Part shown: positions 1,146-15,972 of the stretch, piece by piece
Position numbering within the stretch: position 1 is the stretch's first letter
Layout of the letters: each line of letters starts with the position of its first letter
NCBI GenBank assembly: GCA_035583355.1
Contig: DATEZQ010000003.1
Location: 129,844 to 193,843 of the forward strand
Direction: 5' to 3'
From: Minisyncoccota bacterium
Lineage (GTDB): Bacteria; Patescibacteriota; Minisyncoccia; Phycocordibacterales; UBA6899
DNA: 64,000 nucleotides
Translations under genes and position numbers: made by a program
Notes under the pieces: generated by a model
Told to the model about the DNA's origin: nothing
The model's input: only the letters and a program-made list of their open reading frames with translations
Database searches by the model: none

Positions 1146-1186
1146 TTCGAAATTTATCCCCCAAAGAAGTTTGCTATAATGTGTAT

Positions 1187-2125
1187 ATGCAAATTACTGA
1201 CTGGATGCGACGATTCCTGGAATATACCGAAATAGAGCGTGGCCGCAGTCTGAATACGGTGCGCAATTATGAGCACTATCTCTCTACATTCATTGAGCAG
1301 TCGGGTGTAAAGACTCCTGAAGATATTACGAGTGAAAAGGTACGTGAGTTTCGTATGTGGCTTAATCGTAAGATGGTTGGCGTTGGGAAACGAGGTGTCG
1401 CAGCGACGCCGATGAAACGACGCACGCAGAACTATTACTTAATTGCATTGCGTGCAATGCTCAAGTATTTGGTGCGACAGGGCGTGCAAAGTCTCCCTCC
1501 AGAACAAATTGAATTAGCAAAAGTGCCACAAAGGCAGCTTGATCTTATTGGTCAAAATGATCTCAATAATCTTCTTGATGCCCCCGAAGGAGATAGTCTT
1601 GCTGCGCTACGCGATAAAGCAATTCTTGAAATGCTCTTTTCGACAGGGCTTCGTGTTTCTGAGCTCGTTGGGCTCGATAGGGATATTGATATGTCGCAAG
1701 AACATTTCTCGGTGCGCGGAAAGGGAGAGAAGGTACGCATCGTATTCATTTCTGATGACGCGCGTGATAGCGTAAGGGACTATCTTGCGAAAAGGACAGA
1801 TGTTGATCCTGCGATGTTTATTGCTATCGGACGTGGTGGGGAAAAGTCTTTGAGTAAGAAAGAAGGGTCATTGCGCATGTCTGCGCGTTCGATCGAGCGT
1901 ACCGTAAAGCAGTACGCGATTAAGTCAGGCATCACGAAGAAAGTCACGCCACACGTGTTGCGTCACTCCTTTGCTACAGACTTGCTGGAAAACGGAGCGG
2001 ACATTCGTTCCGTGCAGGCGCTTCTCGGACATTCGAGCATCACAACGACGCAGATCTATACACACGTGACCGATAGAGGTCTTCAGGAAATTCATAAACA
2101 ATTTCACGGGAAGCGAAGAAAATAA
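1187..2125 (+). CDS. tyrosine recombinase, XerC/XerD family
   Basis: C-terminal catalytic region HVLRHSFATDLLENGADIRSVQALLGHSSITTTQIYTHV. TATAAT at 1175-1180 lies 6 nt upstream of ATG 1187, a leaderless arrangement. The ORF track starts at GTG 1181. Confidence 0.85.
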   Translation: MQITDWMRRFLEYTEIERGRSLNTVRNYEHYLSTFIEQSGVKTPEDITSEKVREFRMWLNRKMVGVGKRGVAATPMKRRTQNYYLIALRAMLKYLVRQGVQSLPPEQIELAKVPQRQLDLIGQNDLNNLLDAPEGDSLAALRDKAILEMLFSTGLRVSELVGLDRDIDMSQEHFSVRGKGEKVRIVFISDDARDSVRDYLAKRTDVDPAMFIAIGRGGEKSLSKKEGSLRMSARSIERTVKQYAIKSGITKKVTPHVLRHSFATDLLENGADIRSVQALLGHSSITTTQIYTHVTDRGLQEIHKQFHGKRRK

Positions 2126-2288
2126 AACAGATTGTGAAACATCCGCGCCAGGGCGCGGATGTTTCATTACACCTTAACTGTGAAACATAAAAGAGTGCTT
2201 AGTGGACGAAATGGGCGATATGAGTTATCGCGTATATTTCACTTCATCCTACATTCCATATTTGTGAAACTCTTGCTATCATTATTTC

Positions 2289-3074
2289 ATGAAACTTATT
2301 TCGTGGAACGTGAACGGATTGCGCGCATCCATCAAGAAAGGATTTCTTGAATGGTTACACGCACAAGACGCTGATATTGTGGGCTTACAAGAGATTAAAG
2401 CAGAAGAGTCACAGCTCCCTGAAGAAGTGCTCAGACCTCATGGAGCAAAAGGACAATGGCATGCATACTTCTCTCCTTCACGAACAAAGAAGGGGTATTC
2501 CGGCGTAGCTATGTTCTGCAAGGAGGTCCCCGATCGTGTCGACTATGGTATGGGTATTCCTCGCTTCGATGATGAAGGACGTTACATTGCTGTACACTTT
2601 AAGGACATCGTCATTATTAATTGCTACTTCCCAAATGGTGGTGGTGGCCCCGATCGTTTGTCCTATAAGTATGACTTTTATGATGCATTTCTTTTGCATA
2701 TTAATGCACACAGATCTGAGGGAAAGAAGATTATATTCATGGGTGACGTGAATACTGCACATAATGAAATCGACCTCGCACGGCCAAAGGCGAATGAACA
2801 GAACACGGGATTTCTTCCTGACGAACGTGCGTGGATAGACAATGTTGTAAATTCAGGATATGTAGACACATTTCGCCACCTCCACCCAGTCCTCACTGAT
2901 GCATATAGTTATTGGGATATGAAAACTGCAGCACGTGAGCGCAATGTTGGTTGGCGCATCGACTATTTCTTTATCAGCAATGACTTACTCCGCAGGCTTG
3001 TGGGTGCAGGAATCAGTAGTGAAGTCTACGGCTCCGATCACTGCCCTATTTGGGTTGAGCTGAAAGATAAATAA
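2289..3074 (+). CDS. xth: exodeoxyribonuclease III (AP endonuclease, ExoIII/APE1 family)
   Basis: MKLISWNVNGLRA...LQE...GDVNTAHNEIDL...SDHCPIW motifs. Confidence 0.9.
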   Translation: MKLISWNVNGLRASIKKGFLEWLHAQDADIVGLQEIKAEESQLPEEVLRPHGAKGQWHAYFSPSRTKKGYSGVAMFCKEVPDRVDYGMGIPRFDDEGRYIAVHFKDIVIINCYFPNGGGGPDRLSYKYDFYDAFLLHINAHRSEGKKIIFMGDVNTAHNEIDLARPKANEQNTGFLPDERAWIDNVVNSGYVDTFRHLHPVLTDAYSYWDMKTAARERNVGWRIDYFFISNDLLRRLVGAGISSEVYGSDHCPIWVELKDK

Positions 3075-6160: not shown

Positions 6161-7669
6161 TTATTTCACACGGTATTTGTTGCGAATTTCCTTCACTTCT
6201 TTTTCTTCCTCACTTGCGCGAGTACGCTTCCCTTCTTCGCCTTTCGCAAGAAGTACCTCTTGAGGAAGCATCGCGAATTCTTTTGCGGTTCGCTCGAGCC
6301 ATTCGGTTGTATTGCGCTCGGGGTCCTCAAGCACCTCATCAAAGAGTGCATTGAGGATGGCACCAATGCGCGGACCTGCAGGTTCATCGATGGTCTCCAT
6401 GATTTTTGCACCATCAATCTTTAGCATCTTCACTGATACTGGCGCGCGCATCGCTTCTTCAATCATCGAGTGATATTTGCGCAAGCGATACGGTGTCTCC
6501 ATTGGACGTCCAGTTCCTATACGATCACATGCGCGCACATTCATAAGGTCCCAGACTAATTCAGGTCCGACATTCGCAACAATGCGACGCACTGCGGAGA
6601 GTGTGATCGTCTCTATATCAGAGAAGAACATGTGATAGCGCACGAGTTGTGTGGACTTGAAAATGATTTCGCGAGAATATCGAAGGCGCTCAAGAATTTT
6701 CTTCGCCATCTTTGCGCCGATTACTTCATGTCCATAGAATGTCCACGTCTTTTTCTCCTCTGACCACCTGCGTGATGCAGGTTTGCCAACATCATGAAGT
6801 AATGATCCGAGTCGAACATGAAGTGGCCAAGAGCGATCGGCTGCATGTTGAAGGGCTCGAAGATTGTGCTCCCATACGTCATAGATGTGGATTCCCTTCT
6901 GTTCGCACCCTAGCCCCTCGATAAGCTCAGGGCAAACATAGGTGAGTAAACCCACACGATGGAGGACAAGAATGCCTTCCATTGGTTTCGCACTCATGAG
7001 CATTTTTGAAAATTCGTCACGCACACGTTCCATGGCTATCTTCTCGACAAGCGGAGCGTGAGAAATTACTGCTTCAAGAGTTTTCTCCTCGATAGTGAAA
7101 TCAAGTTGTGCGACGAAACGCACCGCACGCATGACGCGAAGTGCATCCTCAGTGAAACGCAAGTGTGGATCACCCACAGCGCGGATGGTGCGCTTTTTGA
7201 TATCGCTTACTCCGTCGTAAGGATCGATGAGCTCATCACGGACGACATTATATGCGATAGCGTTCATAGTAAAGTCGCGACGCTGCAGATCCTCATAAAG
7301 GCTCTTTGAAAATTGCACGCTGTCAGGGCGGCGAAAATCGCTATATGTAGATTCTGTTCGATAGGGTGTTATCTCAACAATGCGCAACGTTGCACGTTCG
7401 GTATCATTCTCTGGGATTGTTTCATTTACTACTCCGACAGTGCCAAAATCATTCTCATAGAATGTATGGGGAAAAAGTTCGATAATCTCAGCAGGCGTGG
7501 CATTCGTGGTAAAGTCCCAATCTTTCGGAGTCTTTCCCTCGAGGAGATCTCGGGTGCAACCACCGACGAGATAAGCTTCGTAGCCTGCGGATTCAAGAGT
7601 GGAAGCAACGGATGAGATTTCGGGTGGGATATTTAGTAGGGGCATAGTTGTGTGTTGCACGTTAAACAA
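6161..7669 (-). CDS. cca: CCA-adding tRNA nucleotidyltransferase / poly(A) polymerase family with HD domain
   Basis: Class II nucleotidyltransferase N-terminus LVGGCTRDLL and a later HDVGK HD motif. Consistent with tRNA genes here lacking an encoded CCA. Confidence 0.8.
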   Translation of the reverse strand: MFNVQHTTMPLLNIPPEISSVASTLESAGYEAYLVGGCTRDLLEGKTPKDWDFTTNATPAEIIELFPHTFYENDFGTVGVVNETIPENDTERATLRIVEITPYRTESTYSDFRRPDSVQFSKSLYEDLQRRDFTMNAIAYNVVRDELIDPYDGVSDIKKRTIRAVGDPHLRFTEDALRVMRAVRFVAQLDFTIEEKTLEAVISHAPLVEKIAMERVRDEFSKMLMSAKPMEGILVLHRVGLLTYVCPELIEGLGCEQKGIHIYDVWEHNLRALQHAADRSWPLHVRLGSLLHDVGKPASRRWSEEKKTWTFYGHEVIGAKMAKKILERLRYSREIIFKSTQLVRYHMFFSDIETITLSAVRRIVANVGPELVWDLMNVRACDRIGTGRPMETPYRLRKYHSMIEEAMRAPVSVKMLKIDGAKIMETIDEPAGPRIGAILNALFDEVLEDPERNTTEWLERTAKEFAMLPQEVLLAKGEEGKRTRASEEEKEVKEIRNKYRVK

Positions 7670-7678
7670 GAAAAAAGC

Positions 7679-7714
7679 GTTTCACGTGGAACTAGTCTAA
7701 TTATATAGACTAGT
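7679..7714. promoter_or_regulatory. palindromic operator-like sites in the cca promoter
   Basis: GTTTCACGTGGAAC at 7679-7692. A perfect 9-6-9 inverted repeat ACTAGTCTA-attata-TAGACTAGT at 7691-7714 lies immediately upstream of the cca start, which is on the minus strand. Confidence 0.4.
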
Positions 7715-7821: not shown

Positions 7822-7964
7822 TTGCCCAGGACTCGACACCACTCACAAAGTAATTTAGGAGCAAAGCACCTAAATTACTAAGTGGTGGTCGTCACGGCTC
7901 GGCGACCCTGCGCTGCGCTTCGCGCGAGCGAGGGTGCCCGCCTCCGCCTTTCGAGTCCGGCGGG
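7822..7964. repeat. tRNA-3'-end-mimic element D, downstream of tRNA-Arg
   Basis: Degenerate direct copy of the tRNA-Arg 3' end at 7822-7840 (ttgcccaggactcgacacc). GC-rich hairpin core. Inverted copy of the tRNA 3' end at 7950-7964 (ttcgagtccggcggg). A terminator hairpin at 7981-8007 separates it from the tRNA. Confidence 0.6.
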
Positions 7965-8014
7965 ATCTCGAAAAATTGCGGCGAATAATGCTTCGCATTA
8001 TTCTTGCATTTTTG

Positions 8015-8086
8015 TGCCCCCGCCAGGACTCGAACCTGGGATAACGGTTTCGAAGACCGTTGTGATATCCACTTCACTACAAGGGC
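8015..8086 (-). tRNA. tRNA-Arg (anticodon UCG)
   Basis: Manual cloverleaf: acceptor GCCCUUG/CGGGGGC, anticodon arm ACGGU-CUUCGAA-ACCGU, T-arm CCAGG-UUCGAGU-CCUGG, discriminator A. No encoded CCA. Confidence 0.8.
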
Positions 8087-8238
8087 ATTAATTGTTTAAA
8101 ATACTCTAACCTGGGAAAAGCAAGGCGCTCCGCGCACCAGGCTTGCTTGCCCGATAAGGAGCCGCCACCGCGGCACTGATCAACTCACGCCTTCGCTCTG
8201 CTCAGTCGCTCACGGGTAACGGATTTCTTGACTGTCCC

Positions 8239-8284
8239 GATATCCGCTTCACAACAAGGGCATTAATTGTTTTTTCGAATACTC
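8239..8284. repeat. partial copy of the tRNA-Arg 5' half plus its upstream flank
   Basis: gatatccgcttcacaacaagggcattaattgttttttcgaatactc is about 85 percent identical to 8064-8106, which is the tRNA 5' part plus flank. Confidence 0.65.
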
Positions 8285-8405: not shown

Positions 8406-8476
8406 CGCGGGTATGGTTTAGTGGTAGAATGCGTCCTTGCCAAGGACGAGACGGGAGTTCGATTCTCCCTACCCGC
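8406..8476 (+). tRNA. tRNA-Gly (anticodon GCC)
   Basis: GCGGGUA acceptor, anticodon arm CGUCC-UUGCCAA-GGACG, T-arm GGGAG-UUCGAUU-CUCCC, discriminator A. No CCA. Confidence 0.85.
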
Positions 8477-8484
8477 ACAGCACA

Positions 8485-8707
8485 GAAAAAACAGAGCAAA
8501 GCTCTGTTTTTTCTTTTGTGCTTGCGGGTAGGGAGAATCGAACGGAGAGGGGTCGGGAGAGGAAGCCTCTCCCGTCTAGGAGAGCAGGAGTTTCTTGTTT
8601 CACAAGAAACCCCGTCGAGAACCGTGGGTTCTCGAAGAACTTTGCCGTGCGGGCCCCTTTAGGGTGCGCGAGCAAAGTTCGTGAGATCTCTCCCCTCCCT
8701 ACCCAGG
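8485..8707. repeat. tRNA-3'-end-mimic element A, downstream of tRNA-Gly(GCC)
   Basis: Terminator hairpin at 8491-8505 with flanking A and T runs. Perfect 20/20 inverted copy of the tRNA 3' end at 8523-8542. Hairpins cgagaaccgtgggttctcg and gtgcgggcccctttagggtgcgc. Degenerate direct copy of the tRNA 3' end at 8677-8707. The core is about 75 percent identical to element B in the opposite orientation. Confidence 0.7.
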
Positions 8708-8750
8708 CAAAGCCTGGCTAGGGAGTCCCTGATGTTCCTGGGTTTGTTCA

Positions 8751-9353
8751 GTTGTCCTTTATCCCCACTCTCCACAGCCTTATACACAGACAAAGTGTGG
8801 AAAAACTCACTCAGCTCGTATCCTTCAATGAATTTTTGTTGCTATTGAGCCACTTCACAAAGGACACTGTGGACAACCCTGTGGATAGCGGGGATAACTA
8901 TCATGCAAATGTGGAGTTCGATAGAAGTTTTCCCTAATTTCCGGAAATTTGGCTGTTCCCACCATTACTCAATTGTCTGCCCCCTGCCTCCTCCGATTTG
9001 GCCCATGTCTCTTTGATTTGCCATAGCTCCTTGATCTTATGTGCCTATACACATCATATGCCTAGGTGGTGGGGAAAACTCTGTGGATAGTGGGGATAAA
9101 GGACAAATTAGGGTATTTCCTCACGGAATTGCGATTCCTGGGGCTTTATGCTACAGTAGCGCACCTCTGAGTTCTCAGACAATGTGTGGAAAAATGGAGC
9201 AGCATCCTCGCTATTCCATAGAAATCTTATATTTTAGCCGATATTTTGCCTGTATCTGGGGATAACCCTGTGGATAGTGGGGATAAAGGACATTGATTAT
9301 CTTTGAATTCCTCAATGCACAGTCTTTGCTATTGATATACATAGTTATCCACA
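8751..9353. other. candidate chromosomal replication origin (DnaA-box cluster plus AT-rich region)
   Basis: Four copies, one inverted, of a 26-bp repeat of the form ctgtggatagYggggataaaggacaa at 8751-8779, 8877-8900, 9081-9106 and 9258-9295. TGTGGATAG is 8/9 of the DnaA box TGTGGATAA. Extra TGTGGAAAA boxes. A perfect TTATCCACA at 9345-9353 followed by aatataatttatatttaaaa. Confidence 0.5.
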
Positions 9354-12435: not shown

Positions 12436-12714
12436 CGCACCCTTTGGGTGCGGCCGGGGAATCGAACAAACTTTTCTCGCGCACTCCAGAGGAGCCTCGC
12501 GCGGAAAAGTTAAGACCGGGCAATCGAACAATCACTTGTTCGCGCACCCCGGAGGGGCCCCGCACGACAAGTGATTTCGAGAACCCACGGTTCTCGACGC
12601 TCGAGGACTCGCTGCTCTCCTACGCAAGAGAGGTACCCTCTCTTGGCATCTCTCCGTTCGAATCCCGGCGCCCCTAATAAAAAAGAAAAACTCCCTGAGG
12701 AGTTTTTCTTTTTT
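12436..12714. repeat. tRNA-3'-end-mimic element B, downstream of tRNA-Pro
   Basis: Direct degenerate copy at 12450-12467 (gcggccggggaatcgaac). Core hairpins gagaacccacggttctc and gcaccccggaggggccccgc. Perfect 19/19 inverted copy of the tRNA-Pro 3' end at 12656-12674. Terminator hairpin aaactccctgaggagttt at 12679-12714. Confidence 0.7.
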
Positions 12715-12718
12715 ATTG

Positions 12719-12791
12719 TCGGGGCGCCGGGATTCGAACCCGGAGTCATCCGCTCCCAAAGCGGACATGTTAGCCGTTACACCACGCCCCG
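12719..12791 (-). tRNA. tRNA-Pro (anticodon UGG)
   Basis: CGGGGCG acceptor, anticodon arm UCCGC-UUUGGGA-GCGGA, T-arm CCGGG-UUCGAAU-CCCGG, discriminator A. No CCA. Confidence 0.8.
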
Positions 12792-12859
12792 ATATTTCTC
12801 TTTTATACACTTCGGTCATGACAGTCATCCGCTCGCATAAACTGATATGCGGCCATTAT

Positions 12860-12876
12860 GCCACGCCCCGATGTCT
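12860..12876. repeat. short partial copy of the tRNA-Pro 5' end plus flank
   Basis: gccacgccccgatgtct resembles accacgccccgatatttct at the tRNA 5' end (12781-12799). Confidence 0.4.
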
Positions 12877-14824: not shown

Positions 14825-14966
14825 AAAGGTTCCGCAGTAAAACTAGCACAGTAGGAGGCTCAGTCAAGGATGTAAGTGAGACAATCTGCTCCATTGCAAA
14901 ATTCGAAATTTTTGCTAGTATGACACTACATTCATGAAGTGAGTGCAGAGGTAAAACTAAGAACCT

Positions 14967-15002
14967 AAGGTTCTGTATCAAATAATATGCGGGTGTAGTT
15001 TA
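14967..15002. repeat. exact 36-bp copy of the tRNA-Gly(UCC) 5' end plus upstream flank
   Basis: aaggttctgtatcaaataatatgcgggtgtagttta is identical to 15133-15168. Confidence 0.8.
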
Positions 15003-15154
15003 CCCCAGAAAGGAAGTGCGTAGCAATTCCTTGAGTTGCTGTGAATCGCGGAGGCGATTCCTTAGGGGGCAAGAACGCCTGGTTCGCGGAGCGACGTTCT
15101 TAATCGTAAAACTTCTTGTGGTTTGAGAATCAAAGGTTCTGTATCAAATAATAT

Positions 15155-15225
15155 GCGGGTGTAGTTTAGTGGTAAAACTCCTGCCTTCCAAGCAGGTGTC
15201 GGGGGTTCGATTCCCCCTGCCCGCA
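15155..15225 (+). tRNA. tRNA-Gly (anticodon UCC)
   Basis: GCGGGUG acceptor, anticodon arm CCUGC-CUUCCAA-GCAGG, T-arm GGGGG-UUCGAUU-CCCCC, discriminator A. No CCA. Confidence 0.85.
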
Positions 15226-15232
15226 CAACAAA

Positions 15233-15460
15233 CAAAAAAGAAGCGAAAGCTTCTTTTTTGTTTTTGTTGTGACGGGCAGGGGGAATCGAAAGACGGAGCC
15301 GGGCACCGTCACCCGGCGCAGATTTTATCCGAGCTTCGCTCGTGATAAATCCAGCCGCGTGCACGGTCGGCGAGTCGGGGTCGCGAGCACTTAGTCGCAG
15401 CGAGCTTTGCGAAGCGAGACTTAGTGACTTGAGACCGATTCCCCAAATCCGATTTCGTGT
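15233..15460. repeat. tRNA-3'-end-mimic element C, downstream of tRNA-Gly(UCC)
   Basis: Terminator gaagc-gaaa-gcttc with A and T runs. Perfect 18/18 inverted copy of the tRNA 3' end at 15273-15290. GC-rich hairpins (ccgggcaccgtcacccgg ...). Degenerate direct copy near 15444-15456. Confidence 0.6.
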
Positions 15461-15483
15461 GCGAAGTACTCCATGAAACTCAA

Positions 15484-15594
15484 GCACGCAGTGTTTTAGT
15501 TTCCCTATGCATCGCAACGGGAAACATAAAGTGTTTTTAGTTTCCTCCTGCATTACATCGAAAGCACGCAGTGTTTAGTTTCATCTGCATCGTG
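15484..15594. repeat. three tandem repeats of about 35-40 bp upstream of the tfoX-like gene
   Basis: gcacgcagtgttttagtttccctatgcatcg, aaagtgtttttagtttcctcctgcattacatcg and gcacgcagtgtttagtttcatctgcatcgtg. Confidence 0.6.
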
Positions 15595-15645: not shown

Positions 15646-15972
15646 ATGTCCACCCAACGCTCTACCGCTGACTACCTCCTCCAGCTTCTCGGCTCCGACC
15701 ATTTTGCAATCCGTGCTATGTTCGGCGAGTACGCATTGTATTGCGATAGTAAAGTCGTCGCACTCATCTGTGATGATCTTCTCTTTGTAAAGATTCTACC
15801 AGCAAGTATTAGACTTGAATCTCTTTGCGAAAAAGGGGAGCCATACCCTGGCGCGCGATTACACTATCTTGTAGAAGAGTCACAATGGAAATCCATAGAT
15901 GACCTACGAGATATTCTGATCGATGTTGCCGCCACACTTCCTGCTAAGAAGCCGAAGACGAAAAAGGAATAA
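15646..15972 (+). CDS. TfoX N-terminal domain protein (Sxy/TfoX-like competence regulator)
   Basis: MFGEYALYCDSKVVALICDDLLFVKI...ESQW aligns with Sxy LFGSYSLTVDDTVFAMVSDGELYLRA...ESLW. Confidence 0.65.
   Translation: MSTQRSTADYLLQLLGSDHFAIRAMFGEYALYCDSKVVALICDDLLFVKILPASIRLESLCEKGEPYPGARLHYLVEESQWKSIDDLRDILIDVAATLPAKKPKTKKE

Follow-up and report, generated by a model that had tools for sequence, protein, structure and literature searches.

Each of the four transfer RNA (tRNA) genes in the window, i.e. the 64,000-nt stretch of contig DATEZQ010000003.1 (Minisyncoccota bacterium, assembly GCA_035583355.1) that was analyzed, is followed by a gene-less unit of roughly 200 bases (150-300 nt) whose arms are copies of the preceding tRNA gene's 3′ end. 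The units, named A (behind tRNA-Gly(GCC)), B (tRNA-Pro), C (tRNA-Gly(UCC)) and D (tRNA-Arg(UCG)), share the order tRNA(X)-T-X′-core-X in the direction of the tRNA. X is the 3′ segment of the tRNA gene and T a terminator hairpin. X′ repeats in inverted orientation roughly the terminal 20 nt of the neighboring gene (T-loop to discriminator), the core is a GC-rich, multi-helix region of ~110-220 nt belonging to one of two types, and the distal X is a direct copy that is often decayed. Comparison with related genomes revealed a discrete insertion/deletion with a copy of X on either side, units stacked in tandem, and a transfer of core types as well as of individual hairpin modules from one tRNA locus to another, with arms that always fit the local tRNA. 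It also showed that the tRNA-sense strand of the core adopts a conserved fold, which is closed by pairing of X′ with the distal X. With a probability of about one half, we interpret the unit as a non-autonomous, recombination-driven cassette that is anchored on the tRNA 3′ end and has as its core a structured RNA made by read-through.

The layout is best illustrated by element C, for which the first-pass annotation had described a terminator followed by a perfect 18-nt inverted copy of the tRNA 3′ end. All parts of this element are located on the forward strand. Its anchor, the tRNA-Gly(UCC) gene at 15155-15226 (detected by ARAGORN; 71.6 bits with the Rfam tRNA model), does not encode CCA. X comprises positions 15206-15223, from the T-loop into the 3′ strand of the acceptor stem, and possesses two downstream copies. 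The terminator hairpin (15230-15263) has 15 pairs and is followed by a T-run; with an A-tract on its 5′ and a T-tract on its 3′ side it is bidirectional in form, and on the tRNA-sense strand it carries a GAAA loop. As is typical of intrinsic terminators, a GC-containing hairpin and a U-run are thus situated right behind the gene, here as well as at 8484-8514 in element A, and equivalent hairpins are present at all loci. X′ at 15273-15290 (CGGGCAGGGGGAATCGAA) is indeed the exact reverse complement of 15206-15223 (T-loop to acceptor position 71), and an inverted match to this 18-mer never occurred in dinucleotide-shuffled windows, even if two mismatches were allowed. The inverted repeat is part of a longer imperfect palindrome with 38-nt arms (15206-15243 and 15253-15290) centered on the terminator loop. 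Hence, the spacer between tRNA and hairpin is mirrored too, and together with this mirrored spacer X′ reaches back to 15253. The acceptor part of X′ reads GCGGGCA while the tRNA's own 5′ strand reads GCGGGTG, which forms two G-U pairs. Since GCGGGCA is the Watson-Crick complement of the 3′ strand and not a copy of the 5′ strand, X′ was copied from X at the DNA level. A complement of CCA is missing in X′ unless the gene encodes CCA, as does a tRNA-Ser gene of a relative (L006); X′ runs into the complement of the gene flank instead. The constant boundary of X′ is the T-loop, which is the sole stretch of X common to all tRNAs.

Behind X′, the C/D-type core of element C extends from 15291 to 15435. 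Alignment, RNAalifold and pair counts delimited a 5′ domain (15291-15376) with the nested helices GRC/GYC, GSCG/CGSC and ACCSTCGC/GCGASGGT, which carry a long hairpin capped by a UUCG loop. Next comes a 3′ module (15377-15435) composed of GAGCACTTAGT, a variable hairpin and ACTTAGTGACTTGAGAC. The distal X of element C at 15436-15444 (CGATTCCCC) is a 9-nt direct copy of the T-loop and the 3′ strand of the T-stem. It pairs with X′ to form helix P1, which closes the element. The first-pass annotation did not contain this partial direct copy at the far end, nor the finding that the layout exists at all four tRNA genes of the window. Its statement that element C shares the architecture of the other elements (a tRNA followed by a terminator, the inverted 3′-end copy and a GC-rich core) held for A, B and D alike. 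The downstream motif it had reported as resembling one in A and B was also recovered: 'tcgaa' is present in all elements because the inverted copy ends with this complement of the T-loop, and 'cggag' comes next in both core types.

RNase Y, the CCA-adding enzyme and the TfoX-like protein encoded in the window all assign it to the Parcubacteria/Paceibacterota. An exact-protein look-up for the TfoX-like gene gave no entry; one identical TfoX-like protein is on file from a 'Candidatus Paceibacterota' MAG. For comparison, syntenic DNA was obtained from six related genomes (the L001/L031/L021 group, L030, L032, L033, L034/L035 and L036). The first group constitutes, together with L006, L007, L010 and L025, one species, represented by the metagenome-assembled genome (MAG) SKS1.bin43. 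All genomes compared are metagenome assemblies, taken from ENA, NCBI and Logan; contigs of two further relatives found by RNase Y (P0005, P0006) carry no tRNA gene and are hence uninformative. Besides the four copies in the window, at least 20 were found in relatives. The layout was present at 19 of 20 tRNA loci of the clade with enough downstream sequence, the exception being tRNA-Pro of L033. Among the 20 loci, exact inverted copies of 14-24 nt occurred at 13, and exact direct copies reached 20 nt, while control searches with the tRNA 5′ end gave exact matches of at most 8 nt. Six tRNA species are occupied (Gly-GCC, Gly-UCC, Pro, Arg-UCG, Arg-GCG and Ser-GCU), each by units whose arms match the respective tRNA. 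Even the unusual T-loop TTCAAAT of the L032 tRNA-Arg is mirrored by its X′, the distal copy still reading TTCGATT.

The cores fall into two types with different folds. Eight C/D-type copies including element C share the closing helix P1, three nested helices carrying a variable hairpin and, in the RNAalifold consensus, a long 3′ hairpin. In this alignment, paired cells amount to 92.9%, and two-sided changes occur in 29 of 48 pairs, compared to 13 ± 2.2 in shuffles. If the partners were slid by one to three columns, pairing fell to 33-42%. P1 itself comprises 8-22 bp with 92% of its cells paired and repeats the duplex of the tRNA tail. The eight A/B-type copies likewise align well and contain the conserved single-stranded stretches GGAGAGCAG and GTGCGCGAG and four hairpins; 25 of 52 predicted pairs keep pairing despite changes on both sides. 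Hairpin 3 (TCGAGAACC-GTG-GGTTCTCGA) was invariant in the first set of copies. Its variants in L036 (TTGGAAACC-GAG-GGTTTCCAA) and L032 (ATGAGAACC...GGTTCTCAT) are still complementary, demonstrating that hairpin 3 is a helix as well. The variation in the stems is compensatory and the hairpin lengths do not change by multiples of three, for which reason a coding function of the cassette was rejected. No open reading frame (ORF) is conserved.

Covariance models were built from the C/D-type (R1) and the A/B-type copies (R2). Within the window, R1 detected only C and D and R2 only A and B, as expected from the two subfamilies A/B and C/D that had been proposed in the first place. The suggested similarity of the cores of C and D was also evident from their alignment, which extends over the entire length, and from the degenerate 22-mer TCGAAAGRCGGAGSCGGGCACC, which matches C and D only in the window. 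The exact inverted copy and the restriction of this 22-mer to C and D thus confirm both the original observation and the C/D grouping. Over 212 kb of clade DNA, all remaining matches of the two models were copies behind tRNA genes or terminators. The models also detected four copies in L036 (126-148 bits), a genome that had not been used for model building.

Several features point to the tRNA-sense strand as the folded one. The consensus energies of sense and antisense strand were -56.7 versus -42.9 for the C/D type and -57.8 versus -50.6 for the A/B type, and for 10 of 12 elements the minimum free energy of the single sequence was lower on the sense strand. On this strand G exceeds C in all 12 elements, irrespective of the genomic strand, and the hairpin loops are of the GNRA or UUCG kind (GAAA, GTAA, GCAA, TTCG). 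Moreover, several pairs alternate between G-U and A-U or G-C on the sense strand, which would be A-C mismatches on the antisense strand. An RNA of the antisense strand, conceivable in view of the bidirectional form of the terminator, is therefore disfavored by energies, G-U patterns, loop motifs and base composition. A link to the direction of replication was rejected: relative to a cluster of DnaA-box-like sequences at 8759-8897, the four elements of the window have no common orientation, co-directional and head-on arrangements both occurring. This makes a replication-tied single-stranded DNA form less likely than an RNA. Promoters were not found by a scan of the region between T and X′, and since T directly abuts X′, any RNA of the core would have to originate from read-through of T. 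In folds of the whole read-through transcript, X pairs with X′ across T and the tRNA is unfolded, a state that is 6-27 kcal/mol better than tRNA and element folded separately, as far as thermodynamics alone are concerned.

The units turn over. An empty and a filled site were found at tRNA-Arg(UCG). In L036, the tail of this gene (...GGCGGGGGCACAAA) is directly joined to TACCAATTTATT...AGTCTATATAATTAGACTA (junction GGCGGGGGCACAAA|TACCAA...). Exactly at this junction, L030, L031 and the window contain one T-X′-core-X unit ending with a second GGCGGGGGCA. Direct repeats of the tRNA 3′ segment thus bound an insert in three genomes, and a relative has the empty site. The cores are exchangeable. Behind tRNA-Arg(UCG), the C/D type is found in the window, L030, L031 and L033, a mosaic core in L032 and the A/B type in L036. 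Behind tRNA-Gly(GCC), the window, L031 and L033 possess an A-type core, and L036 a C/D-type core followed by a 5′-truncated A-type remnant. Tandem arrangements were detected in L007, where a C/D unit and an A/B unit with a perfect X between them follow tRNA-Arg(GCG), and in L033, where two near-identical units follow tRNA-Gly(UCC). Single modules are replaced as well: the stem of hairpin 4 in element B equals that of the tRNA-Ser element in L006 and differs at every position from that of the L031 orthologue, which still pairs. Similarly, the hairpin tip in the 3′ module of element C is wholly replaced in L036, L031 and L033 while the closing helix is retained. Copies away from tRNA genes retain tRNA-derived arms. 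In L010 the 20-bp closing stem of such a copy resembles a tRNA tail, and in L006 a second unit located 1 kb downstream of tRNA-Ser has an X′ that is a decayed copy of the tRNA-Ser tail.

The allele of element C is common to the window and L036, in which tRNA, spacer and T are identical and X′ and the 5′ domain of the core are ~97% identical, including one double change from A-U to G-C, while the upstream intergenic DNA is only about half identical. The distal X of the L036 orthologue is the full 18-19 nt (CCGATTCCCCCTGCCCGCA), compared to 9 nt in the window. L031, which is about equally distant, possesses at tRNA-Gly(UCC) a wholly unlike T, a different X′ spacer and a core of a D-like subtype, with an older 3′ module behind it. 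The tail of element C (15445-15476) is conserved with L031 and L036, and in those genomes it lies behind the remnant of an older 3′ module. Element A of the window shows 96% identity to that of L021/L031 over X′ and core but ~55% just beyond. Conservation of element A, retention of core types at the same tRNA and near-complete occupancy show that the cassettes are long-lived, and they may be useful to the host, despite their turnover.

According to the reading we prefer, units would be gained, lost, duplicated and exchanged by recombination, either homologous or by template switch. It would take place at the X repeats and at those ends that derive from the T-loop (GGAATCGAAC ... GTTCGATTCC); no other part of X is shared among all tRNAs. 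In a formal scheme, recombination of a circle X-T-X′-core with the X of the tRNA would yield exactly X-T-X′-core-X. Alternatively, a host recombinase might act on the tRNA-tail duplex imitated by the folded X′/X stem, in analogy to CTX-phi and dif. The core would be produced as RNA only if RNA polymerase, starting at the tRNA promoter, reads through T. In such a transcript X′ could capture the tRNA's own 3′ half, and the resulting duplex of ~40 bp would be a likely target of RNase III, so that the read-through RNA would be severed from the downstream genes.

Some observations speak against this reading. The preference for the sense strand consists of modest differences in energy and G-U pairs among 8-12 related sequences, and the putative core RNA is preceded by a strong terminator. 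The empty site of L036 could be the result of a precise deletion between direct repeats instead of a site that was never filled. No copy is adjoined by a transposase, integrase, reverse transcriptase or RAYT gene. Apart from a tyrosine recombinase gene (1181-2125) with XerD/XerC/XerA-like score, no recombinase was seen in the window or the fetched loci, and as this gene is syntenic in every relative, it belongs to the housekeeping genes. Finally, no observed intermediate explains how a newly arrived core, e.g. the A/B type at tRNA-Arg of L036, obtained a matching X′. The same core type at the same tRNA in genomes whose cca products share as little as 74% identity (74-92%) and the almost complete occupation of the tRNA genes are further points against it, as they agree with a function for the host no less than with a selfish element. 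It is conceivable, though in our opinion rather unlikely, that the unit is a cis-acting RNA module of tRNA expression kept by the host, a fail-safe terminator or insulator combined with a processing device, the mobility of which is incidental. In read-through RNA, X′ would pair with the tRNA tail or the distal X and form long duplexes for RNase III, and the structured core would block exonucleases and keep the strong tRNA promoter from affecting oriC and the genes downstream. The constant orientation of the units would agree with such a role, and so would the identity of 96-100% in X′, T and the 5′ domain of the core where the flanking intergenic DNA is ~50-60% identical. The same applies to the adaptation of X′ to the lineage-specific T-loop of L032, the covarying, strand-specific fold and the ability of X to pair either with X′ or inside the tRNA. 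On the other hand, the family is absent from the more distant relative L003, which has a plain tRNA-Gly(UCC), and from tRNA-Pro of L033, and is hence dispensable. Cores of two unrelated types do equally well and can replace each other at one tRNA, tandem, truncated and off-tRNA copies exist, and capture of its 3′ half would destroy the tRNA in the respective transcript.

Other explanations appear less probable. That the unit is a self-addressing mobile element, whose inverted target copy is the device that sets the destination, is quite doubtful. X′ and the direct copy might fold into a replica of the tRNA-tail duplex that a housekeeping recombinase uses as partner site, or a guide strand might pair with the tRNA gene or transcript during a templated insertion. 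The problem of the matching arms would be solved by a snap-back or reverse-transcription product, yet this origin, too, has to be regarded as improbable. A terminated pre-tRNA or a single-stranded DNA ending at T would use the terminator hairpin with its A/U tracts to fold back, be extended and copy spacer and X, switch template at the T-loop to core RNA or DNA of another locus, and be fixed beside the tRNA gene. Priming at the terminator hairpin would yield a matching X′ for any new core, as found at tRNA-Arg of L036. It would also explain why the palindrome is centered on the terminator loop and includes the spacer, why X′ is Watson-Crick complementary to the 3′ strand of the gene and its flank but lacks the CCA complement, and why the boundary is always at the T-loop. 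However, no reverse transcriptase was detected in the window or the fetched relatives, of which only a part of each genome was covered, no intermediates are known, and the distal direct X and the clean empty site fit recombination between repeats at least as well. We consider it very unlikely that the units are remains of attachment sites, left in decayed form by prophages or islands formerly integrated into these tRNA genes. While direct repeats from the T-loop to the 3′ end are typical leftovers of T-loop-class tRNA integrases, and L006 contains a small ORF with weak GIY-YIG similarity between two units, scars would account neither for the inverted copy nor for two covarying folds and a unit of 150-250 nt at six tRNA species close to saturation, and phage or island genes do not lie beside the units. 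Chance similarity or an assembly artefact such as a palindromic mis-join can practically be dismissed. All genomes are metagenome assemblies, but nothing further argues for an artefact. Chance matches are not expected at all, the elements are internal to long contigs, and replication of the layout at four loci of the window and in independent ENA, NCBI and Logan assemblies refutes it.

The closest known parallels include elements mobilized by tyrosine recombinases. The attB site of mycobacteriophage Ms6 lies within the T-loop of a tRNA-Ala gene (PMC1762012), and tRNA fragments left by integrated elements have been described (PMC9897764). X corresponds to the region of the tRNA gene that elements with T-loop-class integrases recombine with and duplicate. 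Like such elements, the cassette is bounded by direct copies of X, brings its own terminator and stacks at one tRNA. Unlike them, it is only 150-300 bp long, carries neither an integrase nor another gene, contains an additional inverted copy of the site and serves at least six tRNAs with one family and matching arms. As the cassette has no coding capacity, it lacks an integrase of its own, and the nearest tyrosine recombinase is the syntenic gene at 1181-2125. Folded single strands are recombined in other systems: that of CTX-phi imitates dif (PMC3442271), and integron integrases use attC hairpins (PMC4792948). Judged by sequence, the two inverted target-like copies and the structured spacer of the cassette could similarly fold into a target duplex. 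The likeness to integrative mobile elements exploiting Xer (IMEX) and CTX-phi is one of anatomy, with a Xer-type enzyme as the only recombinase in the DNA inspected, and would concern, in place of dif or attI, the tRNA tail as putative target.

With miniature inverted-repeat transposable elements (MITE), repetitive extragenic palindromes (REP), bacterial interspersed mosaic elements (BIME), Correia elements and neisserial intergenic mosaic elements (NIME), the cassettes have in common that they are short, non-coding, multi-copy, hairpin-rich, modular and located behind genes near terminators, with modules shuffled among copies. In NIME arrays a short repeat alternates with variable units, as X does with the units described here. 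What separates the cassettes from MITE-type repeats is the almost exclusive link to tRNA genes and the terminal inverted repeats, which are copied from the neighboring tRNA and have only 8-10 nt derived from the T-loop in common. While the definition of a MITE as a short, non-coding, multi-copy element applies, the arms vary with the tRNA instead of being constant, a parental insertion sequence was not found in the window or the fetched loci, and the flanking direct repeat is not a short target-site duplication of fixed length but the tRNA tail (~19-24 nt). REP or REPIN sequences were likewise not a match, as the units are larger and have a multi-helix fold and no Y1/RAYT was found among the scanned ORFs of the window. 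The 18-24 nt perfectly complementary to a specific tRNA 3′ end are reminiscent of the 18-nt primer-binding site of long terminal repeat (LTR) elements. However, X′ lacks the CCA complement (unless it is encoded), continues into the 3′ flank of the gene and not into TGG, and lies beside the gene of that same tRNA without any LTR; none of the scanned ORFs encodes a reverse transcriptase domain. A transfer-messenger RNA (tmRNA) was not found by ARAGORN, and a precise mimic of a tRNA-like end for RNase P, RNase Z or CCA addition was rejected, as bases of the T-loop are paired in P1 and the helix extends past the discriminator. A T-box leader is not indicated either: Rfam gave no T-box match, and the pairing involves 18-24 nt of the tRNA tail, not anticodon and NCCA. 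The cassette thus belongs to none of the families tested and is akin both to small structured intergenic repeats and to integrative DNA anchored on tRNA tails.

The family is, as far as sequence searches can tell, narrow and lineage-restricted. At the gathering score, Rfam 15 recognized the four tRNAs only and did not match the cassette. At an E-value threshold there were just spurious sub-threshold matches of microRNA- or small-RNA-like long hairpins over the tRNA-T-X′ palindrome. JGI metagenomes contained no match to a pattern composed of the tRNA-Gly(UCC) tail and its inverted copy, nor to a three-part pattern of the A/B core. A genome scan with the 18-mer of hairpin 3 of the A/B type gave six matches in a single MAG (SKS1.bin43, one GTDB species), the other 17 being located in unrelated, mostly GC-rich genomes and taken as chance. 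Scans of viral sequences with two patterns yielded one chance match within a coding region for one pattern and none for the other. A literature search did not retrieve a description of such an arrangement. In L021 (positions 1-40), which belongs to SKS1.bin43, the tail of tRNA-Gly(GCC) has two substitutions (CACCC, CCGA) beside a canonical X′. This tRNA gene is intact in L031, an ENA assembly of the same lineage, and the difference in L021 reflects variation in the population or else a mistake in assembly.

The remaining elements of the window are arranged as follows. Element A (A/B type, 8484-8727, +) follows tRNA-Gly(GCC) at 8407-8478 (+) and consists of T (8484-8514), X′ (8523-8543, 21/21 identical), the core, a decayed distal X (8681-8704) and a terminal hairpin reaching to 8727. 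Directly after it, at 8759-8897, the DnaA-box-like 9-mers TTATCCCCA, TTATACACA, TGTGGAAAA, TGTGGACAA and TGTGGATAG, arranged as a 31-nt inverted pair, form the cluster mentioned above. It is kept in L021/L031, L033 and L036 and probably represents the replication origin. Element B (A/B type, 12440-12717, -) is located behind tRNA-Pro (UGG) at 12718-12791 (-), with T at 12676-12717, X′ at 12656-12675 and a core in which the hairpin-4 module occurs twice, with a decayed X behind each (12516-12531 and 12454-12469, -). Element D (C/D type, 7826-8013, -) is anchored on tRNA-Arg(UCG) at 8014-8086 (-) and comprises T (7981-8003), a decayed X′ (~7943-7967), the core and a distal X (7826-7836). It lies between this tRNA gene and the cca gene (6161-7669) on the same (-) strand in the window, L030, L031 and L033, and in L032 with the mosaic core. 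Between 7669 and 7826 (-), a conserved AT-rich hairpin with TATAAT (AGTCTATATAATTAGACT, 7691-7714 in the window) precedes the cca gene.

The DNA upstream of the tRNA genes also contains partial tRNA copies. In front of tRNA-Gly(UCC), the region 14960-15125 starts with a 43-nt copy (95%) of the promoter and the first 14 nt of this gene, 166 nt upstream of the real one. The GC-rich insert behind it contains GAATCGC-GGAG-GCGATTC and looks like a collapsed C/D-type element. This feature is recent because it is absent from L031 and L036. Upstream of tRNA-Arg(UCG), a pseudo-tRNA-Arg (8103-8272, -) consists of the first 48 nt of the gene (80%), a GC-rich insert of ~95 nt and, at its end, the 5′ strand of the T-stem and the T-loop, fused to the real gene's promoter. 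L031 also possesses this pseudo-tRNA; L030, L032, L033 and L036 lack it. The two inserts have a 27-nt hairpin motif in common. Directly upstream of tRNA-Pro, the 5′ part of a pseudo-tRNA-Pro (12797-12872, -) has an intact D-arm and anticodon stem and an anticodon loop expanded to 16 nt that starts with ATATC. It is conserved in the window and L036 (upstream of 7356), forms a tandem pair in L033 (upstream of 2215), is missing in L031 and possibly acts as a functional leader.

As to genes and repeats in the vicinity of the units, the Xer-type gene is followed by an exonuclease III-like gene (together 1181-3074), and this arrangement, ~6 kb away from the putative origin, is syntenic in all relatives. 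The GIY-YIG-like ORF of L006 (3633-3944, -; 104 amino acids) gave a weak full-length match (E = 1.3e-3, below the Pfam cutoff) and is situated between two A/B-type units, each of which is matched to tRNA-Ser. The ORF might represent cargo or encode a homing nuclease. As the enzyme that mobilizes the cassettes it was rejected, as this is one weak case with no homologue in the window or the other fetched loci. Between element C and a TfoX-like gene (15646-15972), three AAGCACGCAGTGTTT(T)AGTTTC-like repeats are spaced ~40 nt apart (15482-15585). The array is partly conserved in L036 and may be a candidate for regulator binding.

Most of the unusually long GC-rich intergenic DNA that surrounds tRNA genes and replication origin of the window is accounted for by the cassette, and the two covariance models can be used for the annotation of related genomes. 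If the turnover reflects true mobility, the cassette would be a gene-less element that carries its address in its own arms, copied from the target. This would be a new use of tRNA genes as landing sites and a natural case of retargeting by sequence and not by protein specificity. If the unit were in addition self-addressing, a gene-less core could be retargeted to any tRNA by a change of ~20 nt. If, on the other hand, it is kept by the host, it would represent a structured RNA of a new class, linked to the transcription of tRNA genes in bacteria whose genomes are very small.

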